Assembly: GCA_965230045.1 (NCBI GenBank)
Contig: OZ245940.1
Coordinates: forward strand, 1,679,403 to 1,743,402
DNA length: 64,000 bases
Source of the DNA: Bacteroidales bacterium
GTDB taxonomy: Bacteria > Bacteroidota > Bacteroidia > Bacteroidales > WRLA01
Direction: 5' to 3'
Notes under the pieces: generated by a model
What the model was told of the DNA's origin: nothing
The model's database searches: none
What the model saw: only the letters and a program-made list of their open reading frames with translations
Shown: piece by piece, positions 15,395 to 56,670 of the stretch
Numbering within the stretch: position 1 is the stretch's first letter
Layout: each line of letters opens with the position of its first letter
Made by a program: the position numbers and the translations under genes

Positions 15395-17458
15395 TTAGCT
15401 GTCTAACTTGTTTTTATAATATTCATATAAAGCAAATTGCGAACGGAACGCCTGCTCGCCTTCAACTGCTTCTTTATAATTATTGCTTTGCTTGTTGTCT
15501 AATATCCGGGCTTTCACATTGTCCTTCCATTGGGTGTCGAGCATAAATTTCAGCTCTTCCTGCAAGGATTCATCGTAAACAGGGCAAGTAACTTCAATGC
15601 GGTGATCAAAATTTCGTGGCATCCAGTCGGCCGATGAAATGAAGTACAAAGGTTTTCCCTCATTGGCAAAGATAATAATTCTTGAGTGTTCTAAAAATTT
15701 ATCGACGATGGCAATGGCTTCAATATTTTCGCTTAATCCGGGAATGCCGGGCTTTAAAACGCATATTCCTCTGATAATTAATTTGATGCGCACATTATGC
15801 TGGCTGGCTTCATAAAGCTTTTCGGCAATGGCTCGATCAACAAGATTATTGAGTTTAATGAAAATAGAGGCTTCTTTGCCTTTTTTTGCGGCTTCAATTT
15901 CCTTGTCGATAAGTTTGATAAAATGATCCCTGATATTGAAAGGGGCAACAATCAGTTTTTTAAATTCCGGGATGGTATAGCGCGATACGAATAAATCGAA
16001 CAGTTTATCCACATCCTGCGCAATATCCTGATTGGCAGTGAACAGGCTGGTGTCTGCATAAACCCGGGCTGTGGATTCATTGAAATTGCCTGTACTGATG
16101 TTGGCGTAATAAACATTTGCCCCATCCTCTTTGCGCCGGATAACCAACAATTTGGCATGTACTTTAAAGCCGGGGATTGTTTCGATAATGCGTACGCCTT
16201 CTTCTTGTAACCTGCTGGTCCAGTAAATATTGGCTTCTTCATCGAAGCGGGCCTGGATTTCGAGGAAAACCGTAACTTTTTTGCCGTTCCGTGCTGCATT
16301 GATCAGGGCATTGATTAGGTTGCTGTCGTGGGCGGCGCGGTAAAAGGTCATCTTCACCGAGCGCACATTGGGGTCAATGGAGGCTTCACGCAGCAGGTCA
16401 ATCAGGTGGGTCATGCTTTGGTAGGGGTAGTTGAGCATGATGTCGCCTTTTCTCAAACTCCGGAACAAACTGTTGTTGTTCATGAGTGCCGGGTGGGGCA
16501 GGGGCGGGGTTTTGCTAAAATACAAATGCGGTTTGTTGATTTTTGGAAAATCCATAAAATCCTTGAAATTATGATATCGCCCTCCACCTCTTAAACTGTC
16601 TTTTTCGGTGATATTCAGGCGTTTCATAATTCTTTTTAAAGCCTTATCGGGGATTTCACGGTCATAAACAAAACGTACCGGCATGCCTTTTTTTCGCTTG
16701 ATCACACTGTCGCGCATATTTTCCAGAAAGCTCTTGGAAACATCATGGTCAATGTCCAGCTCGGCATCGCGCGTAAATTTAATGGTATAAGCTTTGAAGC
16801 GGTCATATCCTAAAACAGCAAAAATATCGTCGAGGCAATAGCGGAGCACATCATCCAGCATAATGATCACCGTTTTGTTTTTTTCGGAGGGAAGGATTAT
16901 AAAACGGCTGAACTTATCGGTGGGGACCCTGAGTACGGCTGCATCTGAATTGTCGGGATCTGCGGAGTCGTGGAGTGTTACCAAAAGGTTGAGGTCGGCG
17001 TCTTTCAGCACATTGAGCAGGTTTTTATTGCGTGCCAGCATAATGGGAAAAAGATGCGGCCGGATGTTTTCGCGGAAAAACCTGCGCAGGTAAATGCCTT
17101 GCTTAGAATCCAGCTCTTCTTCATTCACAATGAAAACCTGTTCATTCTCCAGCTGTGTTCTGATTTCCTGATAAATACGTGTAAAATCTTCTTCCTGATG
17201 ACTGACGATTTCACGGATTTGCTTCAGGGTTTTTCCCGGTTGAAAGCCGGTCTCAATACCTTCCTTTTCTTCAATCCGTGCCAGTCGTTTCATAGTCGCC
17301 ACGCGCACACGGAAAAATTCATCACGATTGCTCGAAAAAATTCCCATGAATTTCAGCCGTTCAATCAGTGGGTTCCGTTCATCTTGTGCTTCCTGTAGCA
17401 CGCGTTCGTTAAATTGCAGCCAGCTCAGTTCCCTGTTGAGGAGTGTTTCATTTATCAT
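15395..17458 (-). CDS. ppk1: Polyphosphate kinase 1
   Basis: 687 aa. N-terminus NRELSWLQFNERVL.. and a PLD-like C-terminal domain (KVHAKLLVIRR). Confidence 0.95.
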   Translation of the reverse strand: MINETLLNRELSWLQFNERVLQEAQDERNPLIERLKFMGIFSSNRDEFFRVRVATMKRLARIEEKEGIETGFQPGKTLKQIREIVSHQEEDFTRIYQEIRTQLENEQVFIVNEEELDSKQGIYLRRFFRENIRPHLFPIMLARNKNLLNVLKDADLNLLVTLHDSADPDNSDAAVLRVPTDKFSRFIILPSEKNKTVIIMLDDVLRYCLDDIFAVLGYDRFKAYTIKFTRDAELDIDHDVSKSFLENMRDSVIKRKKGMPVRFVYDREIPDKALKRIMKRLNITEKDSLRGGGRYHNFKDFMDFPKINKPHLYFSKTPPLPHPALMNNNSLFRSLRKGDIMLNYPYQSMTHLIDLLREASIDPNVRSVKMTFYRAAHDSNLINALINAARNGKKVTVFLEIQARFDEEANIYWTSRLQEEGVRIIETIPGFKVHAKLLVIRRKEDGANVYYANISTGNFNESTARVYADTSLFTANQDIAQDVDKLFDLFVSRYTIPEFKKLIVAPFNIRDHFIKLIDKEIEAAKKGKEASIFIKLNNLVDRAIAEKLYEASQHNVRIKLIIRGICVLKPGIPGLSENIEAIAIVDKFLEHSRIIIFANEGKPLYFISSADWMPRNFDHRIEVTCPVYDESLQEELKFMLDTQWKDNVKARILDNKQSNNYKEAVEGEQAFRSQFALYEYYKNKLDS

Positions 17459-17981
17459 TTGCGGAGAATTTTTTCTTGATTTTGCCCGTTTCTTTCAGCA
17501 TCTTCGGAATGATATAAAAACGTGTGCTTGCCTTTGCCGTTGGGATGCCTTCCCATTTGTCTGTATCAAAATCAATGCAAACTATTCCGGAAGTGGGCAG
17601 CCAGTCGATGGTGTTGCCGTTAAACTCATTGGCAAAATAGGTGAAAGTTGGGTTGTGGCCAACAATCATCAACTTGTCAATTGTGTCTTCGGTTTCAAAA
17701 ATAACTTCATAAATTTTGTTGATATTGGCCTCATAAAGGTTATGCACGGATTCTACACGAATACTGTCTCCGGCTGTTTTGCCAATAATTTTTGCTGTTT
17801 CGCGTGCCCGCACTGCATGGCTGCTTTTGATCAGCTCGGGCAGGCATTTTTCCCGCTCCAGAAAGCGGGCAATTTTTTTTGTTTTGCGTATTCCTTCTTC
17901 GAGCAATGGGCGCTCATAATCTTCTATGTTTGGATAATCCCAACTGCTTTTTGCATGACGGAGAATAAATAGTGTTTTCAT
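17448..17981 (-). CDS. SixA-like histidine phosphatase (phosphohistidine phosphatase family)
   Basis: RHA/RHG-type motif LRHAKS at the N-terminus and GHNP later (IVGHNPTF). 177 aa. Overlaps the ppk1 start by 11 bp. Confidence 0.7.
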   Translation of the reverse strand: MKTLFILRHAKSSWDYPNIEDYERPLLEEGIRKTKKIARFLEREKCLPELIKSSHAVRARETAKIIGKTAGDSIRVESVHNLYEANINKIYEVIFETEDTIDKLMIVGHNPTFTYFANEFNGNTIDWLPTSGIVCIDFDTDKWEGIPTAKASTRFYIIPKMLKETGKIKKKFSANDK

Positions 17982-18107
17982 AATCCCGTTTTTATTGATT
18001 TCGTCTGCTTGTGGTTAAATATCCGGTAAAGTTAATGTTTATACGAGGATATGCATAAAGCTGAGGTTAAAAATTTATAAAATCCAGCTCGTCGGTTTTG
18101 ATAAAGC

Positions 18108-18449
18108 GGTTCTACTAAGAATTTCGTGGGTATTCATAAAGTTTGAGAATAAAAATATTTAGAGAAAATTAATAGATTATTTATGAAAAAACTTGAGTTC
18201 CAACAGATTCCTTCCTCCACAAAGCCTTAATCACTTCGTTTGGCTTTGTTCCGATCGGAATGACGATGTTCATTAATCGTTTAAGGCAAATGCGGCCTGG
18301 TCACTGAGCGGAGTCGAAGTGCGCCGCATTTGCCCTCTGACTTTTAAAACCCGTCATTCCGACAAAGTTTTCCGAAGCATGAGGAAAACTTTGGAGGAAT
18401 CTGTAGGAGATTTATCAGTTTTTCTTTCCACTAAATTCCCAGTAGAACC
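18108..18449. mobile_element. MITE-like non-autonomous element, copy 1 (342 bp)
   Basis: Terminal inverted repeats GGTTCTACTAAGAATTTCGTGG / CCACTAAATTCCCAGTAGAACC. Flanked by the perfect 8-bp direct repeat GATAAAGC (18100-18107 and 18450-18457). Contains nested internal inverted repeats and is homologous to 40442..40793. Confidence 0.8.
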
Positions 18450-18612
18450 GATAAAGCCAAGTGTTGCCATAGGTATTGTTTTCCTGAAGGCTGGGATCGG
18501 ACATTATGGACAGAGACTAAATTATGCTTCGCACTTTGAATATTAGAACAAGCTGGTTAAATTTGCCCACATATAACTAACTCCGCCCTAAAGGGCGTTA
18601 AATAAAATTATT

Positions 18613-19824
18613 ATGACAAAGAAGTTTTTATCAGGATTCGCGATTATGCTGCTCGCGTATTTCCTTATGCCACAACCTGTTATTGCACAGGAAGAAGAAA
18701 AGGAAGAAGGCTACGTTTTTGAGATGGTGAAAGAAATTCCCCATACAAGCGTAAAAGACCAAAACCGTTCCGGTACCTGCTGGAGCTTTTCTACCATCGG
18801 ATTTCTGGAATCAGAACTGATGCGCACCGGAAAAGGCGAATACGACCTTTCCGAAATGTTTACCGTACGCAATTCCTATGCTGATAAAGCCGAAAAATAT
18901 GTGCGCATGCACGGAGCCCTGAATTTTGGTGGCGGTGGCGCCTGCCACGATGTGACCAATTGCTGGGCAAAATACGGTATTGTTCCCGAAGAAGCTTATA
19001 AGGGATTAAGCTATGGCATGGACAATCATGCTCATGGAGAGTTTGATGCGGTTCTTGATGGCTACATGGAAGCAGTCCTGAAAAATAAAAACCGTCAGCT
19101 GAGCCCGGCATGGTACGAAGGTTTGAACGGAATCCTTGATGCATATCTGGGCGATTATCCGGAAACTTTCACCTACGAAGGCGTGGAATATACGCCCGAA
19201 AGTTTCGCTGAAGAGCTGGGTCTTGATATGAACGATTACGTGGAGATTTCATCTTTTACGCACCAGCCGTTCTATGAAAAATTCATCCTCGAAGTACCCG
19301 ACAACTGGGCATGGGGCGAAGTTTATAATGTGCCGCTCAACGAAATGATCGAGATAATCGACAATTCACTCGAAGAAGGTTATAGCGTTGCCTGGGCGTC
19401 GGATGTGAGCCATAAAGGATTTTCTTTCCGTAATGGTGTTGCCGTTATCCCGGAAACCGATATTGAGGAGATGGACAATTCGGAACGCCTGAAATGGGAA
19501 AAAATGGATAGCCGCGAACGCAGCAAAATGCTGTATGCTTTTGATAAACCGCGCCAGGAGAAAAAAATTACACAGGAAATGCGCCAGGAAATGTTCGATA
19601 ATTACAAAACACAGGACGATCACGGAATGCAGCTTGTGGGTATTGCCAAAGACCAGAATGGTTCAAAATACTATTATGTTAAAAACAGCTGGGCTGATGA
19701 CAGTAATAAATACGATGGTTATTTCTATGTTTCTGTTCCTTTTGTTGAGCTGCAGACCACCTGTATTATGGTGAACAAAAATGCAATTCCTAAAGAAATT
19801 AAAAAGAAACTGGGCATCAAGTAA
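18613..19824 (+). CDS. pepC: Aminopeptidase C / bleomycin hydrolase-like C1 cysteine peptidase
   Basis: Catalytic motifs QNRSGTCWSFS, DHGMQLVG and KNSW. An N-terminal signal-like segment is present. Confidence 0.88.
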   Translation: MTKKFLSGFAIMLLAYFLMPQPVIAQEEEKEEGYVFEMVKEIPHTSVKDQNRSGTCWSFSTIGFLESELMRTGKGEYDLSEMFTVRNSYADKAEKYVRMHGALNFGGGGACHDVTNCWAKYGIVPEEAYKGLSYGMDNHAHGEFDAVLDGYMEAVLKNKNRQLSPAWYEGLNGILDAYLGDYPETFTYEGVEYTPESFAEELGLDMNDYVEISSFTHQPFYEKFILEVPDNWAWGEVYNVPLNEMIEIIDNSLEEGYSVAWASDVSHKGFSFRNGVAVIPETDIEEMDNSERLKWEKMDSRERSKMLYAFDKPRQEKKITQEMRQEMFDNYKTQDDHGMQLVGIAKDQNGSKYYYVKNSWADDSNKYDGYFYVSVPFVELQTTCIMVNKNAIPKEIKKKLGIK

Positions 19825-40176: not shown

Positions 40177-40243
40177 ATCATTTGGAATGATGCCCCGGAG
40201 AATTTCCTCACAGAAACTATCTAGAGCTTGTCCACAGAGTCGA

Positions 40244-40364
40244 GAGTTTGCTCTATAAAGTTCAAATTCAAGGCGTGTGAAAAATCCAAACCGGATAATA
40301 CTCAAGTATTTGAGGATTTGGATTTTGAGCAACAACGCAGAAGTTGGACTTTATAGACGAACTC
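40244..40364. repeat. Palindromic intergenic module, type A (121 bp)
   Basis: Termini GAGTTTGCTCTATAAAGT ... ACTTTATAGACGAACTC form an inverted repeat. It is the reverse-complement homologue of 56241..56363. Confidence 0.8.
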
Positions 40365-40370
40365 TATCTA

Positions 40371-40903
40371 GAGTCTGTCTATAATGTCGGGTTTCTGATT
40401 CAGAATGTTCGAGGTCGAGGTGTTCTTGGAATTGAAAATAAGGTTCTACCAGTAATTTCGTGGGTAATTATAATGTTTGAAAAAATGACTATGCCGATAT
40501 TTATTAATAAACTATTGATCCCTAACAGATTCCTCCCTTCCGATAACTATCGGGACAAAGCCTTAATCATTTCGTTTGGCTTTGTTCCGGTCGGAATGAC
40601 GCTGTTTATTAGGCGTTTAAGGCAAATGCGGCGAGGACATAATAGCTTATCTCAATTACGTCCTCGCCGCATTTGCCCTCTGACATTGTAAAACGCGTCA
40701 TTCCGACAAAGTTTCCGAAGCATGAGGAACACTTTGGAGGAATCTGTTTTGAAATATAGTAATTTTTCTTTCCACGAAATTCCGTGTTGTACCGAATATA
40801 AGGAGTCCCGTACGTACGGTATGCCTGTGCTGGGCTTGCCAAAGTAACTGGTTTCAATACCGAGAATAATCCCAAAGCTTCGGGAGATATTATAGACAGA
40901 AAC
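40371..40903. repeat. Palindromic intergenic module, type B, interrupted by the MITE-like element
   Basis: With 40442-40801 removed, it aligns end to end with the reverse complement of 56390..56533. Shared termini are TCTGTCTATAAT / ATTATAGACAGA. It ends at the stop codon of the 40903 gene. Confidence 0.75.
40442..40793. mobile_element. MITE-like non-autonomous element, copy 2 (352 bp)
   Basis: Homologous along its whole length to 18108..18449. TIRs are GGTTCTACCAGTAATTTCGTGG / CCACGAAATTCCGTGTTGTACC. Flanking 8-mers are GAAAATAA / GAATATAA (7 of 8 match). Confidence 0.8.
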
Positions 40904-42144
40904 TAATTCGAGGCGCCCACGATATGCACAACCCCCTTATAAGCTTCTTCGCTAAATAATCCGCGGCAATTCAGTACATAATAATATACGCCATCGCCCA
41001 GGCCATTGCCGTCCCAGTCGTTCATATAATTTGTGCTTTCAAATACTTTTTTGCCGTAGCGGTTAAAAACAGCCAGTTCGCTGCTGATAAACATATCCTC
41101 CAGCTTGGCTTCGTGGTTGTTGTTTTCCACGATTTCAAAAAAGTCGTTGATGCCATCACCATTTGGGGTAAAAACATTGGGAATCAAGAGGTCAACTTCT
41201 TTTATGCTTACGTCCATTACTACGCTGGTATCACAACCGTCCGCGTTATTGGCGGTAAGTGTCACCGGGTAGGTGTTTACCCTTACGTAAGTGTGCGTTG
41301 CATTATAAGTAGTTGCCTGAGCGGTCGTGTCACCAAAATCCCACAACCAGCCTTCGCCTTCTGTTGAGGTGTTGATAAACTCAATGGTAGGTTTGTAAAT
41401 GTATCCTGTATCCGGATCGATTTCAAAACTGATTTCCGGAGCGGGGATGATTTCCACAAAATATGAATCATCGTAGGGGCAGCCGTTTCCGTCGGTGATG
41501 CGCATTTTTACCTCGCCGGCAGGAAGTCCGTAGCCTACTTGTGTAGTTTGCTTGGGAGCGGTAAACCATAAAAAAGAGTAGGGCTCAACGCCATCCGTAA
41601 CATTGATGGCTACCTGGCCTTTATCGTCCTTGAGGCAGCCTTTATTGATTTGCGTTAGTGTATAGGTGATGCCCGATTGGAAAATAGTCAGTCCGCCTGC
41701 AGTATAGTTGGTGGGTAGATCGACGCCGTCTTTATCTTTAAAATTACTGGCTTCCCATGTTATGGCTGTGTTTCCGGCAGCAATTCCTTCAAATTGCAAT
41801 TGCAGCAAAATGCCTGAACCAAACATCAGGTCTTCTGCATTGTCCCATTGCATATTGATCGTATTTCCCGTATTGCTTACCTTGATGCTGTCCCTGAAAA
41901 AATATGGGTTTTGGTACGACATCGAATCGAATGAAATCAGGTTTTCGTCAAAGCTGATGTTGAGGTCGAAACTGGCGAATGTAGCGTCTTCCAGGATCAG
42001 GCTCAGCGCAATGGTGTCGTTTGTGCAAAGCGTACCGTCGGGAAATTCTGCGCCAATTATCTGGCTGTGAGCAGAATGATTTATGGTAAAAAACAGAACG
42101 ATTGTCAGGAAAACCGGATAGAAAGATATTCTTTTCATGTGCAT
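40903..42144 (-). CDS. Secreted protein with PKD/Ig-like repeats and a type-B T9SS C-terminal domain (gliding-motility CHU_C type)
   Basis: Signal peptide. C-terminal motif LLIPNVFTPNGDGINDFFEI..NRYGKKVFES..WDGNG..GVYYYVL. The track start at 42153 is a TTG, so ATG 42144 is preferred. Confidence 0.8.
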   Translation of the reverse strand: MHMKRISFYPVFLTIVLFFTINHSAHSQIIGAEFPDGTLCTNDTIALSLILEDATFASFDLNISFDENLISFDSMSYQNPYFFRDSIKVSNTGNTINMQWDNAEDLMFGSGILLQLQFEGIAAGNTAITWEASNFKDKDGVDLPTNYTAGGLTIFQSGITYTLTQINKGCLKDDKGQVAINVTDGVEPYSFLWFTAPKQTTQVGYGLPAGEVKMRITDGNGCPYDDSYFVEIIPAPEISFEIDPDTGYIYKPTIEFINTSTEGEGWLWDFGDTTAQATTYNATHTYVRVNTYPVTLTANNADGCDTSVVMDVSIKEVDLLIPNVFTPNGDGINDFFEIVENNNHEAKLEDMFISSELAVFNRYGKKVFESTNYMNDWDGNGLGDGVYYYVLNCRGLFSEEAYKGVVHIVGASN

Positions 42145-42412
42145 TTTGGCCAAAAAATTTGAAGCAAAGTTAGCAATATTGCTAAACGGAAAAAATTAAA
42201 ATTTATTCCGTGGCATTCGGTTGAATTATTCATAAAATATCCCAATACGAAGCAAACAACAATAGAAAGAACGAATGTTTACTGTTTTAGTCTCCAGCTT
42301 ATTGTTTCTCATGAAAAAATTCATATTAAAAGGAGAATGAAGGTATTGAGGATGTTTTGAAGTATTTTATTTCTTTTAATACAACAATCTGACTCGTTTA
42401 GACCGTGCGTTG

Positions 42413-42602
42413 GCCAGTCAAAACGGCGGGCAAGAAGCGGGTGAATTTCAGACGCTTAGAATTCTATCAATGGGCGTGAGCTTTGCTGAGGAACGAGGCA
42501 CTACTTTGATGTAGAATTCTTAGCGCCTGAAAGAGCGGGTGGAAGCATTGTTTTGACTTGGCTTTTTGTTCCTTTTGTGCCAAGACAAAAGGAAGAATTT
42601 TT
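42413..42602 (+). ncRNA. Candidate structured sRNA: rod with a large internal bubble plus an intrinsic terminator
   Basis: P1 pairs 42413-42424 with 42550-42562 (12 bp, one bulge). P2 pairs 42449-42466 with 42512-42529 (16 of 18 bp). The 24/20-nt internal loop carries AGCGGGTG on both sides. The terminator hairpin is 42569-42594 followed by a T5 run. Confidence 0.35.
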
Positions 42603-42667
42603 AATACAGCAAAGAAGTCCAGGTATTAATAAATCGGCCAGGTGATTCATGGGTGTGGCTGCAAAAC

Positions 42668-56241: not shown

Positions 56242-56363
56242 AGTTCGTCTATAAAGTCCAACTTCTGCGTTGTTGCTCAAAATCTAAATCCTCATCCCGT
56301 AACTACGGGACTGCGGTTTAGATTTTTCACACGCCTTGAATTTGAACTTTATAGAGCAAACTC
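56241..56363. repeat. Palindromic intergenic module, type A (123 bp), inverted relative to 40244..40364
   Basis: Starts at the last base of the TPR gene's stop codon. The central stem AAATCTAAA / TTTAGATTT differs from AAATCCAAA / TTTGGATTT in the other copy by a compensatory pair. Confidence 0.8.
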
Positions 56364-56389
56364 TCGAGTTTATAGGCAAGGACGAAATA

Positions 56390-56533
56390 GTTTCTGTCCA
56401 TAATGCCCGATCTCAGCGTTACTTTGGTATGGAAACCAGTCATCCCGTAGAGACGGGACTCCTTGTTTCCAGCAAAAGAAATGCCTCGACCTCGAACATT
56501 CTGAACCAGAAACACGAGTTTATGGACAAGGAC
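56390..56533. repeat. Palindromic intergenic module, type B, uninterrupted (144 bp)
   Basis: Its reverse complement aligns with 40371-40441 plus 40794-40903. It serves as an empty-site reference for the MITE insertion. Confidence 0.75.
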
Positions 56534-56670
56534 GCTACAGGCAGGGTGTCTGGAACCCGAACATGCTGGATAAAAAATTTAATCCAGAATAAAATGAATG
56601 TTTTCCTGTTGGAAATGACATTCCAAAAAAAATTGATTCACCGGATGCGTTCCGGCTTTAAAAATGAAAT

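Follow-up and report, generated by a model that had tools for sequence, protein, structure and literature searches.

A probably orphaned, ISL3-type family of miniature transposable elements with a modular hairpin interior in an uncultured Bacteroidales genus

Introduction

Two copies of a non-coding, palindrome-rich element lie within a 64,000-nucleotide stretch of an uncultured Bacteroidales chromosome (GCA_965230045.1, contig OZ245940.1, forward-strand positions 1,679,403 to 1,743,402; hereafter the window), and they raise the question of what this element is, what has moved it and whether its conserved fold has a function. The original prediction, made from the letters alone, read the pair as copies of a MITE (miniature inverted-repeat transposable element) with terminal inverted repeats (TIRs) and 8-bp target-site duplications, and suggested that the transcript might also be functional. 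Here we compare the genome of the window (G000; a single-contig chromosome of 5.14 Mb, 42% G+C, estimated to be 96.6% complete) with the genomes of three sister species (G001, G002 and G003) and of a more distant congener (G004). We argue that the element is very probably a non-coding MITE of the ISL3 type, orphaned in G000, with a modular hairpin interior.

Results

A dispersed family flanked by 8-bp duplications

The two copies occupy 18108-18449 (copy 1, 342 bp) and 40442-40793 (copy 2) of the window and, as had been claimed, are homologous over their full length, aligning end to end with 85% column identity. The predicted TIRs of ~22 bp are present in copy 1 as 18108-18129 (GGTTCTACTAAGAATTTCGTGG) and 18428-18449 (reverse complement GGTTCTACTGGGAATTTAGTGG), which match at 19 of 22 positions. 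The flanks also proved to be as described, with the perfect direct repeat GATAAAGC at 18100-18107 and 18450-18457 around copy 1, and with the 8-mers GAAAATAA and GAATATAA, matching at 7 of 8 positions, around copy 2. We agree, too, that the element lacks coding capacity, the sole open reading frame (ORF) of 40 aa or more to overlap copy 1 being a 75-aa GTG ORF that exits into the flank.

BLASTN searches of G000 place the family at about 180-187 loci, which total 46 kb or 0.9% of the genome and include 103 full-length copies (300-410 bp, consensus ~336 bp). The family TIRs are 22-25 bp long (GGTTCTACnnGGAATTTCGTGG), and the 22-bp TIRs are 95-96% conserved over the 103 copies. Allowing up to three mismatches, the TIR pattern GGTTCTACnnnnAATTTCGTGG gave 152 and 155 matches that form 135 inward-facing pairs, 103 of them 300-410 bp apart; allowing up to two, it gave 131 and 134 matches, versus none for the reversed control pattern. 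Perfect 8-bp duplications flank 71 of 134 bounded elements and duplications with one mismatch flank 21 more (92/134 with at most one), whereas not one of the 134 control flanks has fewer than three mismatches. The duplication length is exactly 8 bp, with 71 perfect cases at this length versus 3 at lengths 7 and 9. Insertion targets are 85% A+T, and 95 of 103 insertions lie between genes; the remaining 8 fall within a long ORF of the restored site, versus 250 of 300 random points. The original prediction had staked its reading on the existence of further copies and on duplications at their flanks. Both points turned out in favour of a MITE, since further copies are many here, and many more in the three sister species, and are flanked by 8-bp duplications, which argues for transposition and not for segmental duplication.

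Comparison with the sister species dates the arrival of copy 1. Its flanks, 95-98% identical to their counterparts in G002 and G003, abut there with an overlap of exactly 8 bp, the single 8-mer lying at G002:C2:2985033-2985040 and G003:C2:1075023-1075030. The site is empty in G001 too (GACAAAGC, ..TTTTGACAAAGCCAAGTG..), with a different repeat ~50 bp away. Copy 1 arrived after its lineage had split from the three sister species. Moreover, when the joined flanks of 18 other randomly chosen copies were searched in the three sister genomes, an uninterrupted site was found in at least one of them for 14 of the 18 insertions. For several of these insertions another sister genome has the flanks ~350-420 bp apart, and one insertion is common to G000 and G002, the copies being 99.2% identical. 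The family is abundant in the three sister species and barely present in the fourth, more distant species; it was not found in 36 genomes of other genera and had no match in the plasmid or phage collections searched.

The ends match an ISL3-family insertion sequence in a sister species

As originally stated, the TIRs resemble neither the IS66 nor the IS21 insertion sequence (IS) of the window, whose ends (GTAAGC.., GTAACTAATC.. and TGGATATTCC..) do not match. The suggestion that an autonomous partner lies elsewhere was also sound: no multi-copy IS in G000 has GGTTCTAC ends, and we found a 1274-bp ISL3-family IS in G003. Elements of the ISL3 family are ~1.2-1.5 kb long, with TIRs beginning GG and 8-bp duplications (ISfinder). 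Because the 8-bp duplication and the GG-initial TIRs suggested ISL3, we searched the genus with PF01610 (DDE_Tnp_ISL3). This domain is present in G003 in four identical copies (E 5e-65, positions 1-240/240, in a 408-aa open frame) and in G002 in one broken copy, and the search of G000 gave no match. Nor does G000 hold a transposase remnant, the best tblastn match having an E value of 1.7 and no IS DNA of more than 40 bp being shared.

The partner IS in G003 ends in GGTTCTACTAGGAATTTTATGGGTAG and, as reverse complement, GGTTCTACTAGGAATTTCGTGGAAGG, with TIRs of 22-25 bp beginning GGTTCTAC. The left (..GTGGGTAA) and right (..GTGGAAAG) ends of the MITE match the two IS ends respectively, asymmetry included, and perfect 8-bp duplications were seen at 4/4 intact or decayed partner copies examined. 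The 405-aa transposase that it encodes reaches 254.6 bits on the NCBI equivalog model NF033550 (ISL3 family transposase), for which the cut-off is 180, and relatives at 36-38% identity have TIRs of like pattern (GGCTTTAG.. and GGCTCTTC..). The MITE and its partner have nothing in common further in than ~25 bp from either end; the interior is not IS-derived.

In G000 the TIR pairs also bound longer elements with five different transposase genes. Mapping on the MITE consensus placed all five as nested insertions, at these consensus positions:
IS110: 241-244
ISAs1: 21-30
IS1380: near 290-307
two ISNCY elements, with their own ends

We therefore rejected ISAs1, IS1380 and IS110 as partners, as both MITE halves surround them. 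The two ISNCY-bearing elements (2027 and 2334 bp) were likewise rejected as nested insertions, since other copies of these ISs have ends of their own (TAGTCCCTGCCAGAA..). One ISNCY-family IS is 1826 bp long, with a 484-aa transposase (NF033593, 380 bits), the TIR TAGTCCCTGCCAGAA and seven near-identical copies; the one at G000:C1:2795619-2797645 is nested in a ~200-bp short element with MITE TIRs, and others lie, for example, at 41159-42610 and 848866-850317. Among the multi-copy families of G000, namely IS1380, two IS66 types, IS3, IS21, IS256, ISAs1 and two IS4-like types, none has GGTTCTAC ends. IS1595, which likewise makes 8-bp duplications, has no match in G000, and its matches in the sister genomes lack the TIRs.

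Could the copies in G000 nevertheless still be mobile, through a resident non-ISL3 transposase or through an ISL3 element on an unassembled replicon? In favour of this, shells that are 99-100% identical occur in some copies at different loci, G000 has many insertions of its own, and its assembly is estimated to be 96.6% complete. However, none of the multi-copy IS families of G000 has similar ends, the searches with PF01610 and tblastn came back empty or no better than E = 1.7, and the chromosome is a single 5.14-Mb contig, so that we regard continued mobility as improbable.

Short elements of 150-270 bp with near-identical TIRs (GGTTCTACnnnGAATTTAGTGG and similar) and other interiors occur in other genera of the order and in G004 (loci L048, L050-L054, L056 and L058). 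As other genera hold such elements, the ISL3-type end is older and more widespread than the 336-bp family.

A branched interior with interchangeable apex modules

The three concentric inverted repeats first described are all present (CAGATTCC.. with GGAGGAATCTG, TCGGAATGACG with CGTCATTCCGA, and GGCAAATGCGGC with GCCGCATTTGCC), and copy 1 contains two further side hairpins, at 18219-18249 and 18364-18392. The apices differ as claimed, the 26 nt of copy 1 being unrelated to the self-complementary 33 nt of copy 2. The features are as follows (P, paired stem).
18100..18107, no strand: left 8-bp target-site duplication GATAAAGC, single at the orthologous empty sites
18108..18129, plus: left TIR GGTTCTACTAAGAATTTCGTGG, then GGTA, as at one end of the ISL3 partner (GGTTCTACTAGGAATTTTATGGGTAG)
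18130..18203, plus: left spacer, A+T-rich, less conserved (87% across the family)
18204..18214, plus: P1 5' arm CAGATTCCTTC, pairing with 18393-18403; helix 1, 96% of cells paired
18219..18249, plus: left side hairpin ACAAAGCC-loop-GGCTTTGT, 98.5% conserved including the loop; helix 2
18254..18265, plus: P3 5' arm ATCGGAATGACG, pairing with 18352-18363; helix 3
18285..18296, plus: P4 5' arm GGCAAATGCGGC, pairing with 18323-18334; helix 4
18297..18322, plus: apical module, type B forward, CTGGTCACTGAGCGGAGTCGAAGTGC, one of at least three interchangeable, invertible apex modules
18323..18334, plus: P4 3' arm GCCGCATTTGCC
18352..18363, plus: P3 3' arm CGTCATTCCGAC, where the family consensus holds the IS110 target GCGTCAT/TCCGA (slash, insertion point)
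18364..18392, plus: right side hairpin AAAGTTTTCC-loop-GGAAAACTTT; helix 6
18393..18403, plus: P1 3' arm GGAGGAATCTG
18404..18427, plus: right spacer, the least conserved spacer (79% across the family)
18428..18449, plus: right TIR CCACTAAATTCCCAGTAGAACC, with TTTCTTT before it, matching the GGAA.G side of the ISL3 partner
18450..18457, no strand: right target-site duplication GATAAAGC
40434..40801, plus: copy 2 with its duplications GAAAATAA and GAATATAA (element 40442-40793), type A apex

When folded, the 336-bp family consensus takes the shape of a rod that contains a four-way junction, and conservation varies along it by part:
TIRs, consensus 1-23 and 314-336: 95-96%
A+T-rich spacers, 24-80 and 291-313: 79-87%
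P1, 81-92 paired to 279-290: part of the core (94-99%)
left side hairpin, 97-127: 98.5%, counting the loop
P3, 132-144 paired to 238-250: part of the core (94-99%)
P4, 163-174 paired to 208-219: part of the core (94-99%)
right side hairpin, 251-278: 89%
apex, 175-207: 52%

The apex comes as type A (33 nt, self-complementary), type B (26 nt), type B' (50 nt) and one 74-nt form, the last two growing by 24-nt hairpin insertions, and each of the three types occurs in both orientations (A, 26 versus 28; B, 10 versus 14; B', 17 versus 2). Apex and shell are decoupled: among copy pairs whose shells are at least 96% identical, 227 carry different modules and 121 carry the same module flipped, and the nearest shell neighbour agrees in apex type and orientation in only 18/97 cases. 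Palindromes of 14 nt (CCGATAnCTATCGG and similar) have been gained and lost at the junctions, and copy 2 has an extra 14-nt mini-hairpin (CGATAACTATCGGG) after P1. Between orthologues, the apex is the same in the one clean pair; two apparent shared sites are independent insertions, and one is a chimera of this family with a second one described below.

At G001:C1:1902372-1902556 and 4554677-4554874 (L116, L117), intergenic spots that hold the MITE in G000, a different element of ~185 bp is found (TTCACAAAA...TTTCATGAA), which contains GGCCACTGAGCATGTCGAAAGTGC, resembling the type B apex module.

A second MITE family shares the core

About 20 loci in G000 match consensus positions 132-251 only, at 72-78% identity. 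They represent a second family (family 2) of ~290-bp elements with ends TATAGAGGTCAGTA.. and ..TACTGACCTCTATA and with TIRs unlike those of the family described so far (family 1). Examples from loci L091-L108 are, on G000:C1:
238259-238535
1443383-1443659
4908087-4908363

The side modules of family 2 are its own (AGCTC-ATAGCGAAGCGAA-GAGCT or GCCGAAGCTTCGGC), and P1, P3 and P4 differ between the families at four pairs in which both sides have changed (C-G to U-A twice, G-C to A-U, and U-A to G-C). When 40 sequences from both families were aligned together, 94.8% of cells were paired, versus 40-45% with slid partners, and cells with both sides changed number 85 versus 34.6 in shuffles, 0/500 of which reach 85. 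These four compensated changes fall on the single branch between the two families, and are not many independent events. In addition, the families have exchanged parts: one family-1 copy carries a family-2 P4, and the G001 orthologue (L113) of G000 4708700-4709071 reads family 1/family 2/family 1, with the joints in the shared stem.

RNA function versus a DNA-level palindrome

Does the fold mean that the transcript is functional, as the original prediction suggested? This suggestion found no support in strand folding, mismatch balance, orientation or Rfam. The minimum free energy of the 336-nt consensus as RNA is nearly the same for the plus (-150.6 kcal/mol) and minus (-148.8 kcal/mol) strands, and G-U and A-C mismatches are about equally frequent in P1, P3 and P4. 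In tandem intergenic regions 28 copies are oriented with the genes versus 29 against, and the intergenic classes occupied match background. Neither a terminator-like U tract nor a promoter signal was found above shuffles, the exact Bacteroidetes motif TAnnTTTG was not seen in spacers read by eye, and Rfam 15, searched with E values up to 1, gave no relevant match in copy 1 with 600 bp on either side or in three IS110-bearing copies.

Template switching during replication is documented to make the two arms of an inverted repeat alike, which looks like compensatory change, and to invert the spacer between them (PMC8794818, PMC8604942). Because nothing singles out one strand and because template switching yields both of the features seen here, arm homogenisation and spacer inversion, we read the fold as a property of the DNA. 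By analogy with these reports, replication template switching can explain the apex flips and the compensation.

On the rival view, selection has kept the branched fold as a functional RNA or as a structural signal in the DNA, and the MITE shell is a mere vehicle. Candidates would be a bidirectional terminator or insulator, an RNase-processing or mRNA-stabilising element such as REP, ERIC or Correia, or a small RNA. Such a role would account for the conservation of the core stems and the left-hairpin loop (94-99%, versus 79-87% in the spacers), for the same core, with its four compensated pairs, in two families with different TIRs, and for the great stability of the fold (-150 kcal/mol for 336 nt), and it would suit the 11 of 57 tandem-intergenic copies that lie within 10 bp of an upstream stop codon. 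However, the strands show no asymmetry in free energy or in the balance of G-U and A-C in P1, P3 and P4, orientation is random, and U tract, promoter signal and Rfam match are all lacking in the searches above. Moreover, the compensatory changes lie on one branch and are of the kind that template switching makes without selection, and the family is confined to one genus. On this evidence we consider a functional fold unlikely.

A related idea, which we put forward tentatively and hold to be doubtful, is that the branched core with its fast-switching apex, whose alternative modules occur in both orientations, is a portable selected module that moves between MITE shells (with GGTTCTAC and TAGAGGTCAG ends), and that it either boosts proliferation by keeping both TIRs close together for the transposase or serves the host as a symmetric signal (insulator, terminator or RNase site). 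If true, the genus would offer a natural system of mobile DNA built from hairpin modules within hairpins and preyed on by an RNA-guided element (IS110) of its own.

An IS110-family element lands exclusively in the core

One of the nested insertions described above belongs to a 1296-bp IS110-family element (327-aa protein, 215 bits on NF033542), all ten copies of which lie inside MITEs. The bearing loci on G000:C1 are:
528900-530535
1637823-1639458
2262394-2265753
2506540-2508200
2886316-2887982
3900460-3902095
4194516-4196158
4442370-4444005
5018527-5020169
5025602-5027236

Nine of the ten insertions read ..AAACGCGTCAT, IS, TCATTCCGAC.. in the P3 3' arm (consensus 241-244), and the tenth occupies the mirror site in the P3 5' arm in the opposite orientation, so that the target is GCGTCAT/TCCGA or its mirror in 10/10. 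The insertions are independent, since the host MITEs are only 79-98% alike and the IS copies are 96-100% alike. The site is intact in the 5' arm of 94/103 copies versus the 3' arm of 62/103, yet insertions favour the 3' arm 9:1. In copy 1 the target reads CCGTCATTCCGA, which departs from the consensus at one position and carries no IS. The target site (GCGTCATTCCGA) occurs 185 times in G000, each time within a MITE locus.

The 230-nt 5' non-coding region of this element holds GCGTCATT, the top strand of the left target plus TCAT, and TCGGAATG, the complement of CATTCCGA (core plus right target), on opposite sides of a predicted internal loop, and a second predicted loop holds ACAGTTCAT, the right end of the IS plus TCAT. 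All three guide-like segments are identical in both variants of the IS. Guides arranged as left and right target guides (LTG/RTG) and a left donor guide (LDG) are known from IS621, and IS110-family elements classically target repetitive extragenic palindromic (REP) sequences (PMC11208160). Like IS621, the element described here has one target sequence only, and its guide segments follow the LTG/RTG logic; unlike IS621, it targets a MITE stem and not a REP, and its repeated junction is 4 nt (TCAT) and not a CT dinucleotide (PMC11208160). The P3 arm is the exclusive landing site of this resident element, and judging from these sequence matches the landing is probably guided by a bridge RNA, which would make an IS110 whose predicted guide loops match a MITE stem a natural example of bridge-RNA targeting.

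An IS110-family target also invites comparison with REPINs, doublets of REP sequences that are mobilised by REP-associated tyrosine transposases (RAYTs), have neither TIRs nor duplications and need a single-copy Y1 transposase gene flanked by REPs (PMC3116915, PMC3337134). The resemblance is real: the element is a long hairpin of two inverted short units, abundant, intergenic and restricted to a narrow clade. One could accordingly propose that the element or its core, an inverted doublet of a GTCATTCCGA...GGAGGAATCT unit, is a REPIN-like doublet moved by a RAYT (Y1/HUH) through single-stranded hairpins, with the GGTTCTAC ends incidental, the more so as one of four Y1_Tnp matches in G000 lies ~200 bp from a family-2 element. 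However, the 8-bp duplications and 22-bp TIRs, which REPINs lack, are signatures of DDE and not of Y1 enzymes, and a cognate ISL3 element with identical ends exists. None of the four Y1 genes, all of which were checked for a RAYT association, is flanked by the core on both sides. Core motifs occur ~150-190 times, about what the two MITE shells account for, and all 185 genomic occurrences of the 12-mer GCGTCATTCCGA lie within MITE loci. A REPIN origin is therefore largely refuted and, in our judgement, highly improbable.

Discussion

Taken together, our findings favour an ISL3-type MITE that has been orphaned in G000. We propose that an ISL3-family DDE transposase, acting in trans, would bind and cut the element at its 22-25-bp TIRs, which are its sole transposition functions, and that this enzyme would insert the element at A+T-rich 8-bp targets, duplicating them. 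The cognate IS is intact in G003, decayed in G002 and apparently lost from G000, and in consequence of that loss the more than 130 copies in G000 would be orphans, presumably immobile now. Copy 1 landed in the divergent promoter region between two genes. The complementarity of the arms and the flipping of the apex would be maintained mainly by replication template switching and by recombination between copies; selection on an RNA would not be required for the pairing of the arms, and the rod-like fold may be of help in that it draws the two TIRs towards each other.

Several observations weigh against this interpretation. Mobilisation by an ISL3 transposase is inferred from the matching ends and from the length of the duplication. 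The 99-100% identical shells at different loci in G000 speak for recent movement, yet the genome has no ISL3 gene; the IS may have disappeared only very recently, a different enzyme may cross-mobilise the copies, or the 96.6%-complete assembly may have missed the IS. Furthermore, conservation of the core equals that of the TIRs and extends to the unpaired loop of the left hairpin, so that neutral decay with template switching is not fully sufficient, which hints at a constraint on the core itself. Finally, template switching does not explain why type A and type B apices have been exchanged among copies whose shells are identical.

MITEs mobilised by ISL3 elements are already known from Microcystis aeruginosa PCC 7806, in which a 187-bp MITE with the TIR GGCTCTTCG makes 8-nt duplications (PMC11448079), and it is the family described here that is new. 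Both are non-coding, have TIRs matching an ISL3-family IS of ~1.2 kb, 8-nt duplications and many, mostly intergenic copies, and fold into stem-loops (PMC11448079). Unlike in Microcystis, where the partner IS resides in the same genome, here it is found only in sister species; the TIR is 22-25 bp long (GGTTCTAC..) versus 9 nt (GGCTCTTCG), and our element is twice as long, with a branched modular interior that it has in common with another MITE family.

Pneumococcal BOX elements (boxA-boxB(n)-boxC) and neisserial Correia elements also have interchangeable sub-modules, length variants that arise by gain or loss of modules, and strong secondary structure. In contrast to these, the modules here are nested hairpins and not a linear series, the apex occurs in both orientations, and a cognate transposase can be named. 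The element is selfish DNA of an ordinary kind and the findings require no new mechanism, although the nested, exchangeable hairpins and the IS110 parasite make this a richer example than most MITEs.

The analysis settles how about 187 loci, or 0.9% of the genome, are to be annotated in this uncultured Bacteroidales genus and names the transposase family responsible. It suggests that in one species a MITE burst can remain after the loss of its IS, which a sister species retains, and it provides insertion polymorphisms as ready markers for strain and species history in these metagenome-assembled genomes. It also carries a caution, as compensatory changes with a stable fold resemble a functional RNA and are here equally explained by template switching in a palindrome.

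Genomic setting of the two copies

Copy 1 lies between two divergent genes, at 17448-17981 on the minus strand and at 18613-19824 on the plus strand, whose start codons are 126 bp and 163 bp away from it, respectively. The promoter spacing differs there because the 350-bp insert (the 342-bp element plus the duplicated 8-mer) is absent in the three sister species, and copy 1 may change the expression of both flanking genes relative to those species.

Copy 2 is inserted into another repeat of ~200 bp, and an uninterrupted paralogous module at 56360-56570 of the window (minus strand) reads ..GGAAACAA/GGAGTCCCG.. across the insertion point (slash). This host repeat, at 40212-40441 and 40794-40915 of the window, is dispersed and ~150-200 bp long (..GTCGGGTTTCTGATTCAGAATGTTCGAGGTCGAGG..GGACAGAAACTA..), with 90-99% identical copies in all five species of the genus, the distant one included; a repeat of the same type also lies beside the copy-1 site in G001 (L118).

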